From contig SCQK01000014.1 in the NCBI GenBank assembly GCA_004321885.1, forward strand, positions 32,001-96,000: a stretch of DNA of 64,000 nucleotides. The letters run 5' to 3'. The DNA comes from Patescibacteria group bacterium. Lineage in GTDB: Bacteria; Patescibacteriota; Patescibacteriia; Magasanikbacterales; GWA2-37-8. A program made the translations under genes and the position numbers. This document shows, piece after piece, positions 1,173 to 63,802 of the stretch. Every line of letters begins with the position of its first letter. Position 1 is the first letter of the stretch. Below the pieces are notes generated by a model, which saw nothing but the letters and a program-made list of their open reading frames with translations, had not been told where the DNA came from and searched no databases.

Positions 1173-3869
1173 ATGAAAGAACTTCCAAAGGCCTACGAGC
1201 CGCGAAAATACGAGGATAAGATATATGAACGTTGGGAAAAGAGCGGGTTGTTCAACCCCGATGTTTGTGTGGAAAAAGGCGTTGCCGATAAGAAGGCGAA
1301 GCCGTTTTCCATTGTCCTGCCTCCGCCCAACGTGACCGGCACCTTGCATTTGGGCCAGGCCTTGATGCTGTCGGTGCAGGATTTGCTGGTTCGTTATCAC
1401 CGCATGAAGAGCGACAAGACCTTGTGGGTGCCGGGCACTGACCACGCGGCAATTGCCACGCAGACCAAAGTGGAGAAATTGCTGATTCAGCAGGGGGTGA
1501 AAGACCCGCGCGCTGAATTGGGCCGGGAAAAATTTTTGAAAGAAGTAAACAAATTCGCGCAGGAATCGCACGATATCATCGTGAACCAGTGCCGCAAAAT
1601 GGGCGCGTCCTTGGATTGGACGCGTGAGGCCTTTACTTTGGACGAGCAAAGAAATCTGGCCGTGCGCACGATGTTCAAGATGATGTACGACGACGGCCTT
1701 ATTTACCGCGGCCATCGCATTGTAAACTGGTGCCCGCGTTGTCATTCCACTCTGGCCGACGACGAGGTGGAGTACAAAGCCCAGGCCGGCAAACTTTACA
1801 CTTTTAGATACGCCGATGATTTTCCTTTTGCCATTTCCACCACCAGGCCCGAAACCAAGCTGGGCGATACGGCCGTGGCCGTAAACCCGAACGACGAGCG
1901 CTATAAAAAATATATCGGCAAAGTTTTTGAAGTAAAAAAATTCGCGGGCGGACCGGATTTGAAAATAAAAGTGATTGCCAGCGAAGACGTGGACACAGAC
2001 TTTGGCACGGGCGCGCTTGGCGTTACTCCGGCGCACAGCTTTGCTGACTATGAAATGGCGCAAAAAAATAAATTGCTGGTGATTAAAGTGATTGATGAAG
2101 ACGGGAAAATTACCAAAGAGGCCGGCAAGCATTATAAGGGGTTCACGGTTTTGGAAGCGCGGGCGCGGGTGCTGGAAAACCTGCGCGAATTGAATTTGCT
2201 GGAAAAAGAGGAAGATGTTTCCAATAATTTATCTGTTTGCTATCGCTGTGAAAGTCCGGTGGAGCCTATTCCCTCCAAGCAGTGGTTCATAGACGTGAAC
2301 AAGAAATTCAGAATCAAGAATGAAGAATTAAGAATAAAGGGATTGAAAGTGAACAGCGAAGTGACGTTGAAACAATTGATGTCGGTCGCGGTGAAAAATG
2401 GACAGATAGAAATTATTCCGGACCGCTTCAACAAAACTTATTTTCATTGGATAGACAATTTGCGCGACTGGTGTATCAGCCGGCAAATTTGGTACGGCCA
2501 CCAGATTCCGGTGTGGTACAAAGGCGAGGAAATTTTCGTGGACGTAGAGGCGCCAAAGGGCGATGGCTGGGCTCAAGACCCAGATACGCTGGATACCTGG
2601 TTCAGCTCTGGCCTGTGGACTTTTTCCACACTTGGCTGGCCCGACAAGACCGATGACTTGAAAAATTTTCATCCCACCTCGGTGATGGAAACCGGTTATG
2701 ATATTTTATTTTTTTGGGTGGCGCGCATGATTTTGATGACGACTTACGCGTTGGGCGATATTCCTTTTGAAAAGGTTTATCTGCACGGTTTGGTGCGCGA
2801 CGAGCAGGGGCGCAAAATGAGCAAATCGTTGGGTAACGCGATTGACCCGCTGGACATGATAAGAGAGTATGGAGCCGACGCCGTCCGCCTGTCGTTGCTT
2901 ATTGGCACCAGCCCGGGCAATGATATGAAGCTGTCGGTGGAAAAAATCGCTGGTTTTCGCAATTTCACCAACAAGCTGTGGAATATCTGCCGGTTTATGC
3001 TGATGAACATCGGCAAGGATGTCATTCTGACCCCGACTCAGTCGGGGGAAGAATCCCTTTCAAAAACCCTGGCCGACAAGTGGATTTTGAATCGGTTGCG
3101 CGCAGTAATTAATATTGTCACAGAAAATATTGAAAAGTTTAATTTTTCTTACGCCGGAGAGCGTCTGCGCGATTTCACCTGGGGCGATTTGGCGGATTGG
3201 TATTTGGAGGTCGCAAAAATAGAAGGTGATAAGTCGGAAATCTTAAATTACATTTTAAGCGTGATTTTGAGACTTTGGCACCCGTTCATGCCCTTTGTCA
3301 CCGAACAAATTTGGCAGGATATTTATGGGAAAGAAAAAATGTTGATGGTGGAAAAATGGCCGGAAAAAATTAAATCGTTAGTTGATTCTTCACTCATCGG
3401 GATGACTGATTTTGATTATGCGAGAAATATAATTTTTCAACTTCGCTCATTGCGAGCTGAATATAAAATTGAACCGACAAAAAAAATAAATGTCGCAATC
3501 AGCGCGGGCGCTAAAGAACAAATTTTGAAGGATAACAAGGAGATGATCGTTAAAATGGCTAAAATTGATAATTTGATAATTGGAAAAGAGGTAAAAAAAC
3601 CGATAAACGCAGTTACATTTTTTGAACCGCCATGTGTTACTGTTTTTATGGACCTGGCTGGTTCGGTGGATTTGGTCAAGGAAAAAGAACGGCTGAAAAA
3701 AGAAATTGAGCAAACGGAAAAATATGTGGAAATACAAAAGAAAAAATTAGCCAACAAAGAATTCGTGGCAAACGCCCCCGCAGAAATCGTGGAAAAAGAA
3801 CAGCAGAAACTTTCTGAATGTGAAGCGAAGCTGGGGAAATTAAAAAATCAATTGAAGAGTCTAAAATGA
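1173..3869 (+). CDS. valS: Valyl-tRNA synthetase
   Basis: 898 aa. HIGH-type motif PPPNVTGTLHLGQA, KMSKS (GRKMSKSLGN), C-terminal coiled coil typical of ValRS. Confidence 0.95.
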   Translation: MKELPKAYEPRKYEDKIYERWEKSGLFNPDVCVEKGVADKKAKPFSIVLPPPNVTGTLHLGQALMLSVQDLLVRYHRMKSDKTLWVPGTDHAAIATQTKVEKLLIQQGVKDPRAELGREKFLKEVNKFAQESHDIIVNQCRKMGASLDWTREAFTLDEQRNLAVRTMFKMMYDDGLIYRGHRIVNWCPRCHSTLADDEVEYKAQAGKLYTFRYADDFPFAISTTRPETKLGDTAVAVNPNDERYKKYIGKVFEVKKFAGGPDLKIKVIASEDVDTDFGTGALGVTPAHSFADYEMAQKNKLLVIKVIDEDGKITKEAGKHYKGFTVLEARARVLENLRELNLLEKEEDVSNNLSVCYRCESPVEPIPSKQWFIDVNKKFRIKNEELRIKGLKVNSEVTLKQLMSVAVKNGQIEIIPDRFNKTYFHWIDNLRDWCISRQIWYGHQIPVWYKGEEIFVDVEAPKGDGWAQDPDTLDTWFSSGLWTFSTLGWPDKTDDLKNFHPTSVMETGYDILFFWVARMILMTTYALGDIPFEKVYLHGLVRDEQGRKMSKSLGNAIDPLDMIREYGADAVRLSLLIGTSPGNDMKLSVEKIAGFRNFTNKLWNICRFMLMNIGKDVILTPTQSGEESLSKTLADKWILNRLRAVINIVTENIEKFNFSYAGERLRDFTWGDLADWYLEVAKIEGDKSEILNYILSVILRLWHPFMPFVTEQIWQDIYGKEKMLMVEKWPEKIKSLVDSSLIGMTDFDYARNIIFQLRSLRAEYKIEPTKKINVAISAGAKEQILKDNKEMIVKMAKIDNLIIGKEVKKPINAVTFFEPPCVTVFMDLAGSVDLVKEKERLKKEIEQTEKYVEIQKKKLANKEFVANAPAEIVEKEQQKLSECEAKLGKLKNQLKSLK
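3031..3047. repeat. Perfect palindrome CCCCGAC-TCA-GTCGGGG inside valS
   Basis: Read directly: ccccgactcagtcgggg, encoding ...TPTQSGEE.... Same CCCCGAC/GTCGGGG arms as the 38-nt element and the pseudo-tRNA hairpin. Confidence 0.6.
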
Positions 3870-34017: not shown

Positions 34018-34035
34018 GTCAATATTTGTTACGAG

Positions 34036-34108
34036 TCGGGCTGGCGGGACTTGAACCCGCGGCCTCATGGTCCCGAACCATGCGCGCTACCAACTGCGCT
34101 ACAGCCCG
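34036..34108 (-). tRNA. tRNA-Pro(CGG)
   Basis: Minus-strand CGGGCTG-TA-GCGC-AGTTGGTA-GCGC-G-CATGG-TTCGGGA-CCATG-AGGCC-GCGGG-TTCAAGT-CCCGC-CAGCCCG-A. Anticodon CGG. Confidence 0.85.
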
Positions 34109-34117
34109 AATTATTAC

Positions 34118-34384
34118 TTATTTCGTTTTGATTAGTTTATCATTAATAATTTTTTCAATATAGTCTCTTCTTTTTAATCTTTTAAGTTTGAGTTCAATTC
34201 GTCTCGCTTCCGTCGTTGTTTCGTAGTGCTGTTTAAATTTTATTATCCATGGGCCTTTATTTTTTGTTGAAGGTGTCTCCCCATTATTGTGTTCAATCAG
34301 CCGGTTTTCCGGATTGTTTGAAGACCCTATATAATACATTCCTGATTTAAGACTTTGCAAGATATAAACGTAAAAACCCTCCAT
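34118..34384 (-). CDS. Small free-standing GIY-YIG nuclease-domain protein
   Basis: 88 aa from MEGFYVYILQSLKSGMYYIGSSNNPENRLIEHN (GIY...YIG...R...E.N). Extremely AT-rich. Sits between tRNA-Pro and a partial tRNA-Pro copy. Confidence 0.7.
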   Translation of the reverse strand: MEGFYVYILQSLKSGMYYIGSSNNPENRLIEHNNGETPSTKNKGPWIIKFKQHYETTTEARRIELKLKRLKRRDYIEKIINDKLIKTK

Positions 34385-34400
34385 AATTGACTTTTTAATA

Positions 34401-34459
34401 GAACCCGCGGCCTCCCCGACGTACCGTCGGGGCGCGCTACCAACTGCGCTACAGCCCGA
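34401..34459 (-). pseudogene. Partial tRNA-Pro copy (acceptor 5' strand + D-arm + T-arm start) with anticodon arm replaced by CCCCGAC-GTACC-GTCGGGG hairpin
   Basis: 28 nt (34432-34459) identical to the 5' portion of tRNA-Pro (34082-34109) and gaacccgcggcc (34401-34412) identical to 34055-34066. No 3' acceptor strand. Confidence 0.6.
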
Positions 34460-34463
34460 TTGT

Positions 34464-34509
34464 ATGGATTCCCGCTTTCCCGCCAAAGGCGGGCAGGCGC
34501 GGGAATGAT
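34464..34509. repeat. Third GTCATTCCCGC...GCGGGAATCCA palindromic element (inverted orientation) with nested CCCGCC-AAAG-GCGGG hairpin
   Basis: Reverse complement reads ATCATTCCCGCgcctgCCCGCCTTTGGCGGGaaaGCGGGAATCCA. Confidence 0.5.
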
Positions 34510-34620
34510 ACCGACAGTAGGGTATCACGTTTTTTTGCGCTTTTCAAGGGGTAAAATTTGTGATAGAATATGCCCTGTCCGCTGGATTACCAGCGACAGA
34601 TAATTTTTACCCCCACCCAA

Positions 34621-36361: not shown

Positions 36362-39300
36362 ATGCGAAGAGCGAAAATAATATTTTTCATTATTATCTTC
36401 GCCGCGTTCAGCTCGGCCGCCTTTGGCGGTCGTGTTTTGTCTTTTGACACCAATATCGCTCATCCAAACATCGCGACATTGGCCGTAAAGCTTTACAATG
36501 AGAATTTTGACCCGGATTTAACCGAGGAACAGACGCGTTGGATAGAGCAGGGAGCTGTTGCCGAGGACACGCCCAACCGGTGGTACAACCATTTTTACGA
36601 CCCGGTCTACAATCGTGGCATCTGGTTTGGCAAACAACATTTATCAGCCAAAAATTGGGCTGTTAATCCCCGAGCTCAAACTGGTTTTGCCTTGGGCGAC
36701 AAGAGCTGGCAAAGAGCGCTTGATGATTTTAGAAATAGTGATGAGGAAAAGGCATACAGGGCCCTGGGGCATATTATTCACCTTATTTCAGATATGGCTG
36801 TGCCGGCGCATACCCGAGACGACATTCATCCGCTCGGCGATTCGTTTGAGCAATTTGTGAAAAAGAATTGGGCCAGCGCGACAAAGAATTTGCGCTATGG
36901 AATGATATCTGTATCTGATTTAGATTCAGCTTTTGATTCTGTGGCCAATTATTCAAACAATAATTTTTATAGTGATGATACGATTGAAAATAAAAAATAT
37001 CAGAATCCAGATTTGAATCACATTATACTAAAATATGTGGAAGTTGGAAATGGCATTTCTTATAAATTTTTAGTCAATTCAGTTGGTGGTCAAGAAAGTT
37101 TGCTTTGTAGAACTAATAGCAATAAGAATTGGTTAGACACTCTTGGGGATGACATTCTAAAAGAGTGCAAAGTTGGTGATGATCTCGTTCTCACCGACTA
37201 CTCCCGCCACCTGCTCCCAAAAGCCATCGGTTACAGCGCCGGAATTATTAAACTATTTTTTGACCAAGCCAAGAGTGATAAGGAAGTGGGTAATTTGCCC
37301 GGCAAAAGAACTAGTTTTTCCGGATACCTTGATCAATTTCTTGGTTTCGCTGTCTCGGGAGCGGAAAAATTATACAGCGTGATTAAGATAGCGTTAGGAA
37401 TAGAGCCGGCTTATTCCGAGGGAAGCGCGGAGATTGAGGAACAAGCGCCCTCCCTCCCGCCAGAGGCAGGCAAGCATCAAGGGGAGGGAACGACCACAAC
37501 CACACCAACCACGCCAACCACGACCAACGTCGCGCAGACCACGACCAAACCCAAACCCCCCGCCACCATAAAAAAAGCGGTCGGGAGAAAGACCGGGGCG
37601 TCTGGCGCGCCGGTCGCTGGCTCCATAGTCCCCGACTTAGTCGGGGCTGTGGAGCCCAATGCCAGCACCCTGGCTCCACAGCCTCCTGCGGGGGACAATG
37701 GAGCCAGCCAAGAAGGAACGACGACCACGCCTGTGTATTTTCCTCCATCGTCAAGAGACGGGGGAGCGTATCCGCCAAATACCCCTCCCCTAATAGGGGA
37801 GGGAGATGTTGTGCCTACCACCACCCCGACACCCACCACCACCCCGTCTTCTACAACTACCCCTTCGTCCACCACCACCCCAACCCCCTCCCCCACCACC
37901 ACTCCCACCAGCACTCCGGCTCTGCCACCGCCACCGCTCGTCATCAGCGAAATCGCCTGGGCCGGCACCTCGGCCGCCAGGTCCAACAACGAATGGCTGG
38001 AGCTTTACAACAACTCCACCTCGTCAATAGATTTCACCTCGGGCTGGAAAATTTTTGTTTCCGGCGCCCAGCTCAACATCTCCAATTTTGTTAATCCAGT
38101 CATTTTACCAAAAACATATTACCTGTTGGAACGCACCGACGATTTTACGGTCAAAGAAATTTCCGCGGACGCGATTTACACCGGCGCCCTAAACAATAAT
38201 GGCGCGAAAGTGGAACTCGTCAATCCAAGCGGAGAAACCATAGACACCGTGGACGGCTCCTCGGGCTGGTTCGCGGGTCAGGCCAGTCCCAGTTACGCTA
38301 GTATGGAAAGAAAAGACCTCACCGCCAGCGGTACGAGTCCCGGCAACTGGCAATCCAGCATTGGCGGGCGCGCCACTGGCACGAGCGATGAAATGCCGCC
38401 CAAGCCCATCATGGGCTCGCCCAAACGCCCCAATTTCGGCTACATTGTGCTTACTGGTACCCAAGCCCAAACCACCCGCACACTCACCACAGACAACAGT
38501 CCCTATCTTTTGTGGAGTTACACTATTCCAGCCGGCTTTACATTAAACATCAATCCCGGCGTGGTGATAAAAAGTTACACCCAAAGCGCGGTGATGATTG
38601 TAGATGGGACGCTGAATGTTGGCGGGGGAGACAATAAAGTCATCTTCACCTCGGGCAAAGACCAGTCTTTCACCAGTCCCGACCTCAACCTGATAGACAT
38701 CAATTATCTTTGGACAACTCCCGGGCCGGCTGAAAAAGATTGGCAGGGGCTGTGGTTCAAGCCCGGCTCCCAGGGCAACATCGCCAATACAGAAATCAGA
38801 TACGCGGGCAAAGAGTTTTACCCCACCGGAGGCCCGGCCATGTCCCAGGGCATTCGCGCCGAATCCGGGCTTTCCCTATCAAACTCCACCATCGCCAACT
38901 CCGGCTCCGCGCTTATCTTTCTCCAAAATGCTTCTTCCACCATTACTAACACCAACTTCACCGGCTCCGATCTGGCCATAGAAGCCAACAATTCCCGGCT
39001 CACAATCAACGGCGCGCACTTCACGGGCTTTGGCTCACAGGGCCCTTTGCAAATCAAAGACGCCTGGCCCGAATTTTCCAATCTCACCTACACCACCGGC
39101 ACTGTGCCTTATGCCCGTTTGTACATGGTAAAAACCAGCGCCCCGCAGACCACGGCCAAAAAAGAAATCAATTACCTCTTTGACAACATTGAAGTGGCGT
39201 CTTCCACCACCTTAAACATTGAACCCGGCGCCAACGTCAAAATGACCAACAGCTCCATACTCACGGTCAATGGCGTTCTCAATGCCAATGGCACGCCCAC

Positions 39301-54278: not shown

Positions 54279-54298
54279 TTTGTGACCCGGCTGGGATT
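54279..54298 (-). repeat. 20-nt direct duplicate of tRNA-Lys 3' end (T-loop to trailer)
   Basis: tttgtgacccggctgggatt identical to 54470-54489 at the 3' end of tRNA-Lys, 191 bp away. Degenerate similarity continues a few nt beyond. Confidence 0.6.
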
Positions 54299-54473
54299 TG
54301 GCCTCGCCTCTCGCTCGCTTCCGCTCGCTCGGGCTGGCCACCGCCTCGCGGTTTGGCTCGCCCATAAGCTCGCCAAACATCGCTCCGGCGTTCGAATCCC
54401 ACCGCGAGCAAAACTATTTGCTCGCTGCCGGTTCCCAAAATTCAAATCCGCCTAATTGCGGATTTTAATTTTG

Positions 54474-54546
54474 TGACCCGGCTGGGATTCGAACCCAGGA
54501 CCTCTTCCTTAAAAGGGAATTGCTCTACCAACTGAGCTACCGGGCC
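54474..54546 (-). tRNA. tRNA-Lys(UUU)
   Basis: Minus-strand GGCCCGG-TA-GCTC-AGTTGGTA-GAGC-A-ATTCC-CTTTTAA-GGAAG-AGGTC-CTGGG-TTCGAAT-CCCAG-CCGGGTC-A. Anticodon TTT. Confidence 0.85.
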
Positions 54547-61972: not shown

Positions 61973-63802
61973 TTACTCCCACTCAATAGTTCCGGGTGGT
62001 TTGTTGGTGAGGTCGTAGAAGATGAAGTCCACGGCGTTTAGAGCGTGGATTTTTTTGATGATTTTTTTCAGAGTGGGCGAGGGTATGACGCCAAACGAGA
62101 CGGTCATCGCTTCTTCTGATTCCACGGGTCGCAGGACAATTGATTCGCCGTGCTTGTGCCCAAACGGCACGAGCACCGTGGGCATTTGCCAGATTTTTTG
62201 GCATTGCTTGTCGGTCAAAATGGCGCTGTCGGCGATGTCATCTATTTTTCGCAAAAGGTCCAGCCGTTTTTTGGTAAGATACGCTTTTTTCAGCGTGGCT
62301 TTTGGCAATGATTTTTTGTCGCCGGAAACAAGCAGTAGAACGCGGTTGATGTCTTTGTGGGCGTTGGTGATTTTAGGAGAAAGGGATTGATAATACCCCC
62401 ACCCGGCCTCCCCCTTATAAAGGGGGAGGGGACCTGTGATAACGGCGGGGTGGGCGTAGGAGCGCTCGTCGCCTTGCACGCCCACGGATTTGATGGGGAG
62501 ACGCCAAATTGTTGGCTCCACAGCCCCGACTAAGTCGGGGACTATGGAGCCAGCGTCGTTTGATCCTTCCGAGCACAGACAGCGAATGGCCAGGCCCGGG
62601 CCCGGAAAGGGATGGCGGTTTATCAATTTTTGCGGCAGACCGAGCTTAAGGCCGATGGCGCGCACTTCGTCTTTGTACAAATCCTTAATCGGCTCTATGA
62701 TTTTTCCTTCGGCGATCATTTGTTTTATCCGCGGTACGCGATTGTGATGCGTTTTTATGACGTCGGCGTTTTTGGTGCCGCCCGATTCAATAGTGTCGGG
62801 ATAAATGGTGCCTTGGCCGACCAACCATTTGTCTCCGGTCAATTTTTTTCTACCAGACCCGCCTTTGGCGGGTTCGGCCATTACTTTGTCCACAATATCC
62901 AAAAACAAATCGCCGATGATTTTTCTTTTTTGTTCCGGATCAGACACGCCTTTGAGCGCGGATAAAAATTCTTTTTCGGCGTTATACACCCGCAAGTTGT
63001 CTCCCAGTCGCTTCAGAGCCGCTATGATTTTTTTTGTCTCATCCAACCGCATCAGGCCGCTGTCAATGTGCAAGCCGAAAACCCTTTTTTCGCCAAGCAC
63101 TTTTCGCAATAGGGCGAAACAAACCGTGGAATCAACGCCGCCGGAGACGAGCAAGAAAACATTTTTACCGCCCGCTTCCTTTTTTATATTTTTTTCAATT
63201 TGATCCAGCATTGTCTCTGTCGTCCAGTTTTTTTCCGCCCCGCAAATATTTAAAATAAAATTGGCCAGAATTTTTTTTCCTTCTTTCGTGTGATTTACTT
63301 CCGGATGAAACTGAAAGCCGAAGAACTTTTTTGATAAATTTTGCATGGCCGCCACCGAACGGTTGCCGGTTGAAGCGATTGGCGTAAAACCGAACGGCAG
63401 TTTGTCCACGTGATCGCCGTGGCTCATCCAGACAACGGTATTTTTACTTACGCCCGAAAAAATCGGCGAGGCGCTGACGGATAATTTCGCCAAACCGTAT
63501 TCACGCGCCTTGCCCGATTCAACGCGCCCGCCAAAAAAATCTGCCATCAACTGATGCCCGTAGCACAGACCCAAAATCGGCGCGCTGAGCGTAAAAATTT
63601 TTTTATCAAAAGGCAAACGCGCGTCGCGCACCAGCGAACGCGGACCGCCGGAAAGGATGATTCCACACGCGTTTTTCAATCGTTCGGCTTTGACGTTATT
63701 CGGGTAAATACGTGAAATAACGCCCAGTTCGCGCACGCGACGGGCGATGAGATGGGTGTACTGGGAACCGAAATCAAGGATGGCGATTTCACTTTTTGGC
63801 AT
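61973..63802 (-). CDS. guaA: GMP synthase (glutamine-hydrolysing), with in-frame palindromic inserts
   Basis: GATase [22 protein letters not shown]...GLCYGHQLM...HGDHV. ATP-PPase [14 protein letters not shown]-terminal dimerisation domain. ATG 63802. Confidence 0.85.
62407..62429. repeat. In-frame palindrome CCTCCCCC-TTATAAA-GGGGGAGG in guaA
   Basis: Encodes (minus strand) [11 protein letters not shown]. Confidence 0.55.
62514..62551. mobile_element. Second copy of the 38-nt palindromic element (encodes [13 protein letters not shown] in guaA)
   Basis: Reverse complement is identical (38/38) to 37619-37656. The flanking CGCTGG is also shared. Confidence 0.7.

Follow-up and report, generated by a model that had tools for sequence, protein, structure and literature searches.

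Why should a small gene for a GIY-YIG nuclease lie between a broken and a complete copy of the same tRNA gene? The locus that raises this question belongs to a 64,000-nucleotide (nt) stretch of DNA from a Patescibacteria group bacterium (contig SCQK01000014.1), the whole of which we refer to as the window. Read on the minus strand, the locus consists of a partial tRNA-Pro, a GIY-YIG open reading frame (ORF) of 88 amino acids (aa), and an intact tRNA-Pro, an order proposed in an earlier reading of the sequence alone and confirmed here with ARAGORN, BLAST, and alignment. That sequence-only reading saw in the locus a small mobile cassette using the tRNA as its target or landing pad. The idea is supported by the coupling of the gene to tRNAs across its family and by in silico excision at three related loci (L012, L064, and L035; related loci are cited by such numbers throughout), and we consider it probable that the locus is one copy of a selfish cassette that invades the tRNA genes of Patescibacteria (the candidate phyla radiation, CPR) and of a few other lineages.

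The tRNA-Pro locus and its counterparts beside other tRNA genes

The elements of the locus, in the order in which the minus strand reads them, are as follows:

34459 to 34486, minus strand: promoter-like TTGGCG-16 nt-TACAAT from a consensus scan (9 of 12 matches, weak alone), ending 1 base before the pseudo-tRNA
34433 to 34458, minus strand: pseudo-tRNA-Pro positions 1 to 26, the acceptor 5' strand and the whole D arm, the same as in the intact gene (alignment, BLAST)
34414 to 34432, minus strand: family hairpin CCCCGACG-GTA-CGTCGGGG, a 19-nt palindrome in place of the 17-nt anticodon arm (positions 27 to 43)
34401 to 34413, minus strand: pseudo-tRNA-Pro positions 44 to 56, the variable loop, T-stem 5' strand, and T-loop TTC, the same as in the intact gene
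34385 to 34400, minus strand: AT-rich 16-nt leader TATTAAAAAGTCAATT from the pseudo-tRNA to the start codon, with no obvious Shine-Dalgarno sequence
34118 to 34384, minus strand: GIY-YIG nuclease gene of the UPF0213/SLX1 branch, 88 aa plus stop (Pfam, alignment, structure model)
34109 to 34117, minus strand: 9-nt spacer from the stop codon to the tRNA
34035 to 34108, minus strand: intact tRNA-Pro(CGG) (ARAGORN; Rfam RF00005, 72.6 bits)

The pseudo-tRNA repeats tRNA positions 1 to 27 exactly (34458 to 34432; 27 of 27, or 28 with the shared T at 34459; BLAST E value 2e-10) and positions 43 to 56 likewise (34414 to 34401; 14 of 14, G43 included; BLAST E value 0.013 and alignment), its anticodon arm being swapped for the hairpin CCCCGACGGTACGTCGGGG, and the copy breaks off in the T-loop after GGTTC. 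The sequence-only reading had given the identical blocks as 28 and 12 nt; the first figure holds if the shared T is counted, and the second should be 14. Its coordinates were right for the ORF and off by one base for the end of the intact tRNA and the start of the copy, and its description of the ORF as AT-rich against its flanks was borne out (31.8% GC, i.e., guanine plus cytosine, versus 49.0% for the whole window). The ORF makes up 267 of the 292 nt separating the two tRNA-Pro copies. The whole unit is 424 nt long and lies between two housekeeping genes, for a T2SSE ATPase and a DUF4230 protein, the latter beginning 14 to 16 nt past the tRNA-Pro. The ORF list and Pfam revealed no recombinase gene between these two genes, and tblastn found no second GIY-YIG copy in the window. 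The mechanical ORF list starts the gene at GTG 34528 and runs through the pseudo-tRNA (136 aa), whereas homologues start at ATG. The window derives from a metagenome-assembled genome, and the 88-aa protein is on record, in identical form, from a 159-kb NCBI contig and a 4-kb contig of run SRR8426592.

The intact tRNA-Pro(CGG) is the functional copy, either cargo of the cassette or a resident gene restored by it. The promoter-like sequence is probably the original tRNA-Pro promoter, which would now drive the pseudo-tRNA, the nuclease gene, and the tRNA. A nested GC-rich hairpin, TTCCCGC-GCCTG-CCCGCC-TTT-GGCGGG-AAA-GCGGGAA, lies just upstream of the pseudo-tRNA (34470 to 34516, minus strand) and overlaps the promoter-like -35 box; CCGCC/GGCGG hairpins also occur within the pseudo-tRNA D loops of L009, L010, and L033. 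Known RNAs do not account for the locus, as Rfam matches the intact tRNA only and assigns the pseudo-tRNA and its hairpin to no family. A group I intron in the tRNA gene was likewise rejected, since no Rfam intron model matches and the downstream tRNA is complete, which agrees with the earlier argument that the insert is not an intron.

The arrangement is not peculiar to the window. We collected 80 loci from 80 unrelated species-level genomes with a peptide pattern blind to tRNAs, and 66 of them have a same-strand tRNA whose start falls in the range of -45 to +70 nt relative to the stop codon. The partners have 11 identities (Thr, Pro, Val, Ala, Arg, His, Ile, Asn, Phe, Asp, and Gly). The distance is exactly -10 in 23 loci, meaning that the stop codon is the tRNA's own T8-A9-G10, and in six further loci an intact tRNA lies 0 to 60 nt upstream instead. 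The compact architecture as such recurs in about 70 loci, and extra loci drawn from metagenome assemblies show the same tRNA adjacency (five of five). In 31 of 69 cases a protein and its nearest relative pair with a tRNA for the same amino acid (chance expectation, 10.8%), which indicates that lineages keep one tRNA but sometimes switch. In 78 of 78 loci the gene has a lower GC content than its flanks, the mean difference being 11 points, and several contigs break off just beyond the gene. Tandem or second copies lie within a few kilobases (kb) of one another at L004, L057, L062, and L089, and L036 and L010 are degenerate copies. In a minority arrangement (L031, L033, L038, L044, L051, L054, and L071) the intact tRNA stands before the gene and the hairpin-bearing copy after it; whichever tRNA copy stays intact, the other is disabled.

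Some loci are more elaborate. L089 (1 to 482) and L062 (2638 to 3331) hold, in tandem, a nuclease gene, a hairpin-bearing pseudo-tRNA-His, a second nuclease gene, and tRNA-His; L089 may be a repeat-induced assembly end, as L088 has the identical protein together with a normal promoter flank. Tandem partial copies of tRNA-Val occupy L033 (2400 to 2915), with at least four 5' copies upstream, each bearing the family hairpin, and at L006 (3460 to 3620) at least two 3' copies of tRNA-Pro with family hairpins follow downstream at 79-nt spacing; both regions are partly masked by runs of N. At L083 (4254 to 4581), a more distant GIY-YIG gene of 82 aa lies beside a DUF4230 homologue, with tRNA-Gln(TTG) 5 nt after it and, before it, a degenerate copy of tRNA-Gln positions ~18 to 45 without a CCGAY hairpin, an arrangement suggesting that the tRNA coupling may extend beyond the hairpin-bearing subfamily.

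Insertion into resident tRNA genes and a carried tRNA

At L012 and L064, the upstream fragment (positions 1 to 10) and the downstream fragment (positions 11 to 76) belong to one tRNA. When the ~445 to 450 nt between them are deleted in silico, the two join into a perfect cloverleaf of tRNA-Ile(UAU), its acceptor stem paired throughout. The stretch removed has hairpins at both ends and, between them in this order, a few tRNA-like bases, the nuclease gene, an intact tRNA-Ile(UAU), and a few more bases, and the restored tRNA is only 50/75 and 55/80 identical, respectively, to the intact tRNA inside the insert. Excision of ~486 nt from L035 rejoins a tRNA-Val(GAC) whose acceptor strand reads GCGCGCG, versus GCATGTG in the intact copy. 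Automated excision over all loci was noisy, and for a differing resident tRNA we rely on L012, L064, and L035 only; L031 and L074, of related architecture, were not used as excision evidence. In four Ile(UAU) loci, the tRNAs after the gene are 74 to 89% identical to one another and 62 to 72% identical to the disrupted resident genes of the same genomes; the nuclease gene and its tRNA thus travel together. Judged by these comparisons, the intact tRNA appears to be cargo of the cassette in at least some lineages rather than the untouched target envisaged in the sequence-only reading.

The loci with an anticodon-arm hairpin and both junctions preserved (L006, L029, L034, and L079) show the hairpin and the adjoining tRNA bases flanking the gene and tRNA as a direct repeat. 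L011 and L029, which share 96% protein and ~97% DNA identity, differ by a 117-nt indel made up of the spacer and a right-hand pseudo-tRNA with the same hairpin, and 33-nt direct repeats, taken from the 3' part of the tRNA, border the indel. Such a loss of the right-hand pseudo-tRNA explains the form found in the window.

From these observations a mechanism can be proposed. In its full form the cassette is ~450 nt long and has terminal GC-rich CCGAY/RTCGG hairpins, a UPF0213/SLX1-type GIY-YIG gene, and an intact tRNA, which follows the gene directly and matches the invaded gene in specificity. It enters at the base or loop of a cloverleaf arm, either in the D region (at 10/11 or 15 to 17) or by replacing the anticodon arm (27 to 43). 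The resident 5' fragment keeps its promoter, and many related loci have TATAAT-like boxes upstream of the pseudo-tRNA; a single transcript would run from the hairpin-bearing pseudo-tRNA through the nuclease mRNA to the functional tRNA. Were RNase P to cleave at the tRNA, the mRNA would end there and, in the 23 overlap loci, lose its stop codon, which would hold nuclease levels low. With the resident gene destroyed, the host would come to depend on the cassette-linked tRNA. Spread would begin with a DNA cut by the nuclease, after which host recombinational repair would copy the cassette by way of tRNA homology (homing in the broad sense), and later recombination between the repeated tRNA pieces would trim the structure. 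The window copy, which may still be mobile, would be such a trimmed form, retaining the left junction, the nuclease gene, and the intact tRNA-Pro and having lost the right-hand pseudo-tRNA piece.

The hairpins and the nuclease

The 120 nt before the start codon nearly always contain a fragment of the local tRNA broken by at least one GC-rich hairpin with the core CCGAY...RTCGG. Hairpin density falls from 12.55 per kb in these 120 nt to 0.05 to 0.09 per kb in the distal flanks, beyond 500 to 700 nt; the 435 nt that follow the gene have 2.0 per kb. Two designs recur. In the first (~20 loci), a symmetric YCCGAYG-loop-CRTCGGR takes the exact place of the anticodon arm, as in the window, L002, L004, L006, L007, L011, L028, L029, L034, L039, L040, L077, L079, and L086; at L071 and L046 the T arm is replaced by a hairpin too. 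In the second (~40 loci), the D region contains two inserted hairpins, placed after position 10 or 15 to 17, which read CCGACG...GTCGG and then CCGAC...CGTCGG, a two-fold symmetric arrangement that looks identical from either strand. Nesting of one hairpin in the loop of another is frequent (including L022, L037, L042, L054, L066, and L075). The hairpin of the window is the conserved signature of the whole family and not an incidental feature.

The stem has five invariant core pairs and two outer pairs that covary, with Watson-Crick pairing (CG, TA, GC, and AT) in 174 and 159 of 190, and in the same covariation count G-T mispairs are not commoner than A-C mispairs. Long "loops" tend to form extra variable stems, and both orientations of the hairpin relative to the transcript occur. 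The covariation of the outer pairs without a G-T excess points to a hairpin whose role lies in the DNA, or in both strands, and not in mRNA alone. Consistent with this, the window leader folds no better than shuffled sequence (z = -0.9), and a reading of the leader as an RNA structure was rejected on the grounds of that value and the lack of a G-U excess in the stems.

The pattern CCCCGAC-N3-9-GTCGGGG occurs four times in the window versus zero times in 100 shuffles. Besides the one in the pseudo-tRNA, the window has the following:

3031 to 3047, 37630 to 37646, and 62524 to 62540: CCCCGAC-TNA-GTCGGGG hairpins inside long ORFs, with a 3-nt loop and within longer palindromes

The sequence-only reading had assigned the pseudo-tRNA hairpin to the same arm type as these in-frame elements. 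The 7-nt arms are indeed common to both, but the design is not identical, given the 3-nt loop and the longer palindromes of the in-ORF hairpins. Two of the latter lie in a 38-nt palindrome, GGCTCCAYAG-(T)-CCCCGAC TNA GTCGGGG-CTRTGGAGCC, in opposite orientations, and the outer arm GGCTCCAYAG resembles tRNA positions 1 to 10 (acceptor strand plus TAG), a frequent point of hairpin insertion in the pseudo-tRNAs. Judging by their sequence, the in-ORF palindromes possibly derive from the same system. Related hairpins turn up in two other settings. At L040 (3855 to 3930), the "tRNA-Leu(taa)" reported by ARAGORN is a tRNA-like sequence of full length in which the family hairpin TCCCGACGTAACGTCGGGG takes the place of the anticodon arm; it stands alone ~600 nt from the nuclease gene. 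At L028 (~3346 to 3385) and L069 (~1740 to 1775), CCGAC-type hairpins followed by T runs resemble intrinsic terminators, e.g., ACCCCCGACTTAGTCGGGGGTATTTTTTT after tRNA-Ala; the hairpin motif may serve as a terminator in these genomes or derive from one.

The hidden Markov model search proposed for the 88-aa protein returned Pfam PF01541 at 57.3 bits, against a cut-off of 22.6 (E value 1.9e-15, residues 4 to 73). Among 35 sequences the catalytic positions Y18, G20, R28, and E64 are invariant and Y7 and H32 nearly so (at least 90%), and the window protein has all of them, its motifs aligning to those of BH0048 and Slx1; the conserved set covers the Tyr of GIY, the Tyr of YIG, the Arg, and the metal-binding Glu. 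A profile built from 35 homologues matched, in the PDB, the UPF0213 proteins BH0048 (2e-12) and EF2693 (3e-8), then SLX1 (6e-6) and I-TevI (8.5e-4). The AlphaFold2 model (mean predicted local distance difference test score 92.5) has the element order E-E-H-E-H-H and an alpha/beta fold with a three-stranded sheet; Foldseek gave a probability of 1.00 to both 1zg2 and Slx1, with a template modeling score of 0.62, and ranked BH0048 and Slx1 above UvrC and I-TevI. The match to TIGR01453, "group I intron endonuclease," reached 20 bits against a cut-off of 56 and covered profile positions 4 to 38 only. A basic helix forms the end of the protein, at residue 88, and the PHD/RING zinc finger of SLX1 proper is not present. 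It thus has the look of the short bacterial UPF0213 members rather than of SLX1 itself, and it is very probably an active nuclease, as predicted from these features, consisting of the catalytic domain alone. The earlier label of a homing-endonuclease-type gene is apt insofar as this is a GIY-YIG nuclease; it does not fit insofar as the protein is not of the Seg/I-TevI type with a DNA-binding domain.

Six locus pairs gave ratios of nonsynonymous to synonymous substitution rates (dN/dS) of 0.12 to 0.18, so the gene is under purifying selection; the pair L003/L008 was left out for its nonsensical value, probably due to a frame problem. The family comprises 2,614 clusters at 50% identity (E value at or below 1e-10). 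Many database members are 110 to 150 aa long, with false N-terminal extensions that arise because gene callers read through the upstream pseudo-tRNA.

With an intact tRNA next door and no DNA-binding domain in the protein, a classical cut in a naive tRNA gene is hard to reconcile with the locus. A cut at a stem-loop, be it a tRNA arm or one of the element's own hairpins, fits the enzyme family, the replacement of arms by hairpins, the nesting, and the two-fold symmetry. We therefore entertain, tentatively and with rather less than even confidence, a class of mobile element guided by DNA shape and not by sequence, in which a minimal SLX1-like nuclease would recognize both the stem-loops of tRNA genes and its own CCGAY hairpins. 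It would cut at the bases or loops of stem-loops, and repair would exchange tRNA arms for element hairpins, accounting for replacement, nesting, and long hairpin duplications; the spare tRNA carried along would make the host dependent, and the three in-ORF CCCCGAC palindromes would be derivatives.

Another reading, which we regard as fairly unlikely, is that the CCGAY hairpins themselves are the mobile units, in the manner of repetitive extragenic palindromic (REP) sequences and their RAYT transposase, and are spread by structure-specific GIY-YIG cutting of hairpin or cruciform DNA. The tRNA arms would then be natural landing sites, the gene would sit where its substrates gather, and the extra tRNAs would be by-products of break repair. 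This would account for the replacement of whole anticodon or T arms at some loci and D-loop insertions at others, for the nested hairpins and the symmetric D-region pairs, for the same-arm hairpins within ORFs elsewhere in the window, and for the want of a G-T over A-C excess, which is expected of a structure used on both DNA strands. The closest solved relatives, UPF0213 and Slx1, belong moreover to a structure-specific nuclease family (PMC7017083). However, the hairpins are ~150 to 250 times rarer away from the gene, unlike genome-wide REPs; the stop codon welded to the tRNA 5' end in most loci is left unexplained, and so is the finding that the tRNA behind the gene resembles its equivalents in other genomes more than it does the resident copy; and a hydrolytic nuclease alone cannot perform strand transfer.

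Weighing the cassette against other explanations and known systems

Several points weigh against the selfish cassette that we favor. The lack of a DNA-binding domain and the score below the intron-endonuclease cut-off (20 versus 56 bits) make sequence-specific homing by the protein alone doubtful. A nuclease cutting naive tRNA genes should also target the adjacent intact tRNA, and no consistent difference between cargo and resident tRNA was found at the 10/11 insertion point. At the window locus the pseudo-tRNA equals the intact tRNA outside the replaced arm, so that resident and cargo are indistinguishable there. Neither relatives of the flanking DUF4230 gene nor metagenome scans yielded an empty site or a presence/absence polymorphism for the window locus: metagenome contigs scanned by exact match contained neither the predicted empty junction nor the tRNA/DUF4230 junction, homologues of the flanking DUF4230 protein were 55 to 60% identical at best, and four of the contigs carrying such homologues showed no synteny with tRNA-Pro or the T2SSE ATPase. 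One of these four is L083, with its own GIY-YIG gene and tRNA-Gln beside DUF4230. The 2.9 million viral contigs of IMG/VR contained no relatives, and hence no vector is known; a phage origin, for which neither PHROGs nor PADLOC offered a family either, was rejected. The taxon labels of many loci from metagenome-assembled genomes (e.g., "Gammaproteobacteria" and "Planctomycetales") may be unreliable, and spread across phyla is thus not established. Finally, the strong purifying selection and the association of lineages with particular tRNAs also fit a long-resident, largely vertically inherited gene.

The last point leads to an explanation that we consider improbable, in which nothing is mobile: a housekeeping UPF0213-type nuclease for repair or for RNA or DNA processing would be expressed by CPR bacteria from tRNA operons, the hairpin pseudo-tRNA would be a structured 5' leader controlling expression or shielding the tRNA from misfolding, and the tRNA pieces would have arisen by slippage. 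The dN/dS values, the promoter-like sites upstream of the pseudo-tRNA, the empty PADLOC, PHROGs, and viral searches, and the broad conservation of UPF0213 in bacteria (PMC7017083) are all compatible with such a role. Yet the gene has eleven tRNA partners and no synteny, it occurs in tandem, second, and degenerate copies, and near-identical loci differ by an indel. A leader of this kind is also at odds with the fold of the window leader (no better than shuffles) and with the occurrence of both hairpin orientations, and a host gene would not account for in silico excision restoring split resident tRNAs that differ from the internal tRNA.

Least plausible by far is that a tyrosine-integrase element left a duplicated att fragment in tRNA-Pro with the GIY-YIG gene as a leftover passenger. 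In its favor, integrative elements usually target tRNA genes and characteristically leave a partial tRNA repeat, and this genome and its relatives do have small inserts with a duplicated tRNA 3' end. However, att repeats duplicate the tRNA 3' end whereas the repeat here is of the 5' 56 nt and is placed upstream, no integrase or island gene is present in this 424-nt unit between housekeeping genes, and the same compact architecture is found in ~70 loci.

One small insert of that other kind was observed in the window itself, on the minus strand at 54282 to 54546. Here tRNA-Lys(TTT) (54546 to 54473) is followed by a GC-rich non-coding insert of 174 nt (54472 to 54299) and by a repeat of the last 17 nt of the tRNA (54298 to 54282). 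The insert has no Rfam family and is homologous to one after tRNA-Pro in L007, with the motifs GGAyTyGAACGyCGGAGCGAT and CGCGAGrCGGTGGyCAG in common; similar duplications of the tRNA 3' end occur in L002 and L057. By its sequence organization, it looks to be a second class of small element targeting tRNA T-loops or 3' ends.

Returning to the selfish cassette, the full-text literature yielded no description of tRNA-linked GIY-YIG cassettes or of the hairpin, although coverage was incomplete and an earlier description is possible. The nearest accounts concern T4 SegB, insertions in CPR rRNA genes, and group I introns in CPR tRNA genes. SegB is a free-standing GIY-YIG homing endonuclease encoded in the tRNA cluster of the phage (PMC2330249). 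Like it, the cassette has a GIY-YIG gene outside introns and among tRNA genes, with its spread tied to neighboring tRNA sequence. In contrast to the 88-aa catalytic domain of the cassette, the Seg proteins and I-TevI have a DNA-binding domain and a defined cut site in the allele lacking the gene, and pseudo-tRNA copies, conserved hairpins, and a replacement tRNA are features of the cassette not reported for SegB (PMC2330249). In CPR rRNA genes, GIY-YIG ORFs occur in insertions that are neither group I nor group II introns (PMC11270868); these resemble the cassette in their bacterial group and in placing GIY-YIG genes in non-intron intervening sequences of structural RNA genes, and tRNAs are not mentioned there. 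A survey of tRNA introns in Patescibacteria describes group I introns at 35/36 and makes no mention of GIY-YIG (PMC13011429).

By sequence and fold, the best match is to SLX1 and to YhbQ of E. coli and YazA of B. subtilis (UPF0213; PDB 1zg2, 1ywl, and 7cq2), with which the cassette protein has the motifs vYil, YiGst, R..eHn, and E in common. SLX1 is a structure-specific nuclease, while the bacterial YhbQ and YazA are uncharacterized (PMC7017083). The structure-specific activity of SLX1 would suit a hairpin or cruciform substrate for the cassette nuclease, which differs from SLX1 in having neither the PHD/RING zinc finger nor a known SLX4-like partner. Bacterial UPF0213 members are, to our knowledge, single-copy genes of unknown role, and we know of none tied to tRNA genes or hairpin repeats. 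The resemblance to REP/RAYT systems (REPtrons) lies in a small nuclease-type gene flanked by conserved hairpins with an invariant motif and covarying stems; RAYT, however, is an HUH/Y1 protein and REPs are dispersed intergenically, whereas the cassette has a GIY-YIG protein and its hairpins are concentrated at the gene and in tRNA-derived sequence. Integrative elements that restore the tRNA gene they invade offer a further parallel, in that a working tRNA remains and a partial tRNA duplicate arises. Those elements use a tyrosine or serine integrase and duplicate the 3' end, while the cassette has no recombinase, supplies a complete tRNA, and either duplicates the 5' part of the gene or splits it in the D or anticodon region. 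The cassette acts like a SegB-type homing cassette and like the tRNA-restoring islands but belongs to neither, because it has no DNA-binding domain and no integrase, comes from another GIY-YIG branch, and has a conserved hairpin system.

The findings bear on annotation as well. Gene callers extend the ORF through the pseudo-tRNA (to 136 aa in the window), hairpin-bearing pseudogenes may be called as odd tRNAs, such as the "Leu(taa)" of L040, some contigs end at cassettes, and tRNA gene counts in CPR genomes can be wrong. For the UPF0213/YhbQ family, long uncharacterized, the link to the hairpin and to tRNA genes offers a concrete candidate substrate. If our reading is correct, an abundant selfish element (2,614 clusters at 50% identity) would be added for the bacteria with the smallest genomes, one that would invade essential single-copy tRNA genes and compensate for the damage with a tRNA of its own, and whose nuclease, at 88 aa, would be so small that its choice of target may rest on DNA structure or on the conserved hairpins.

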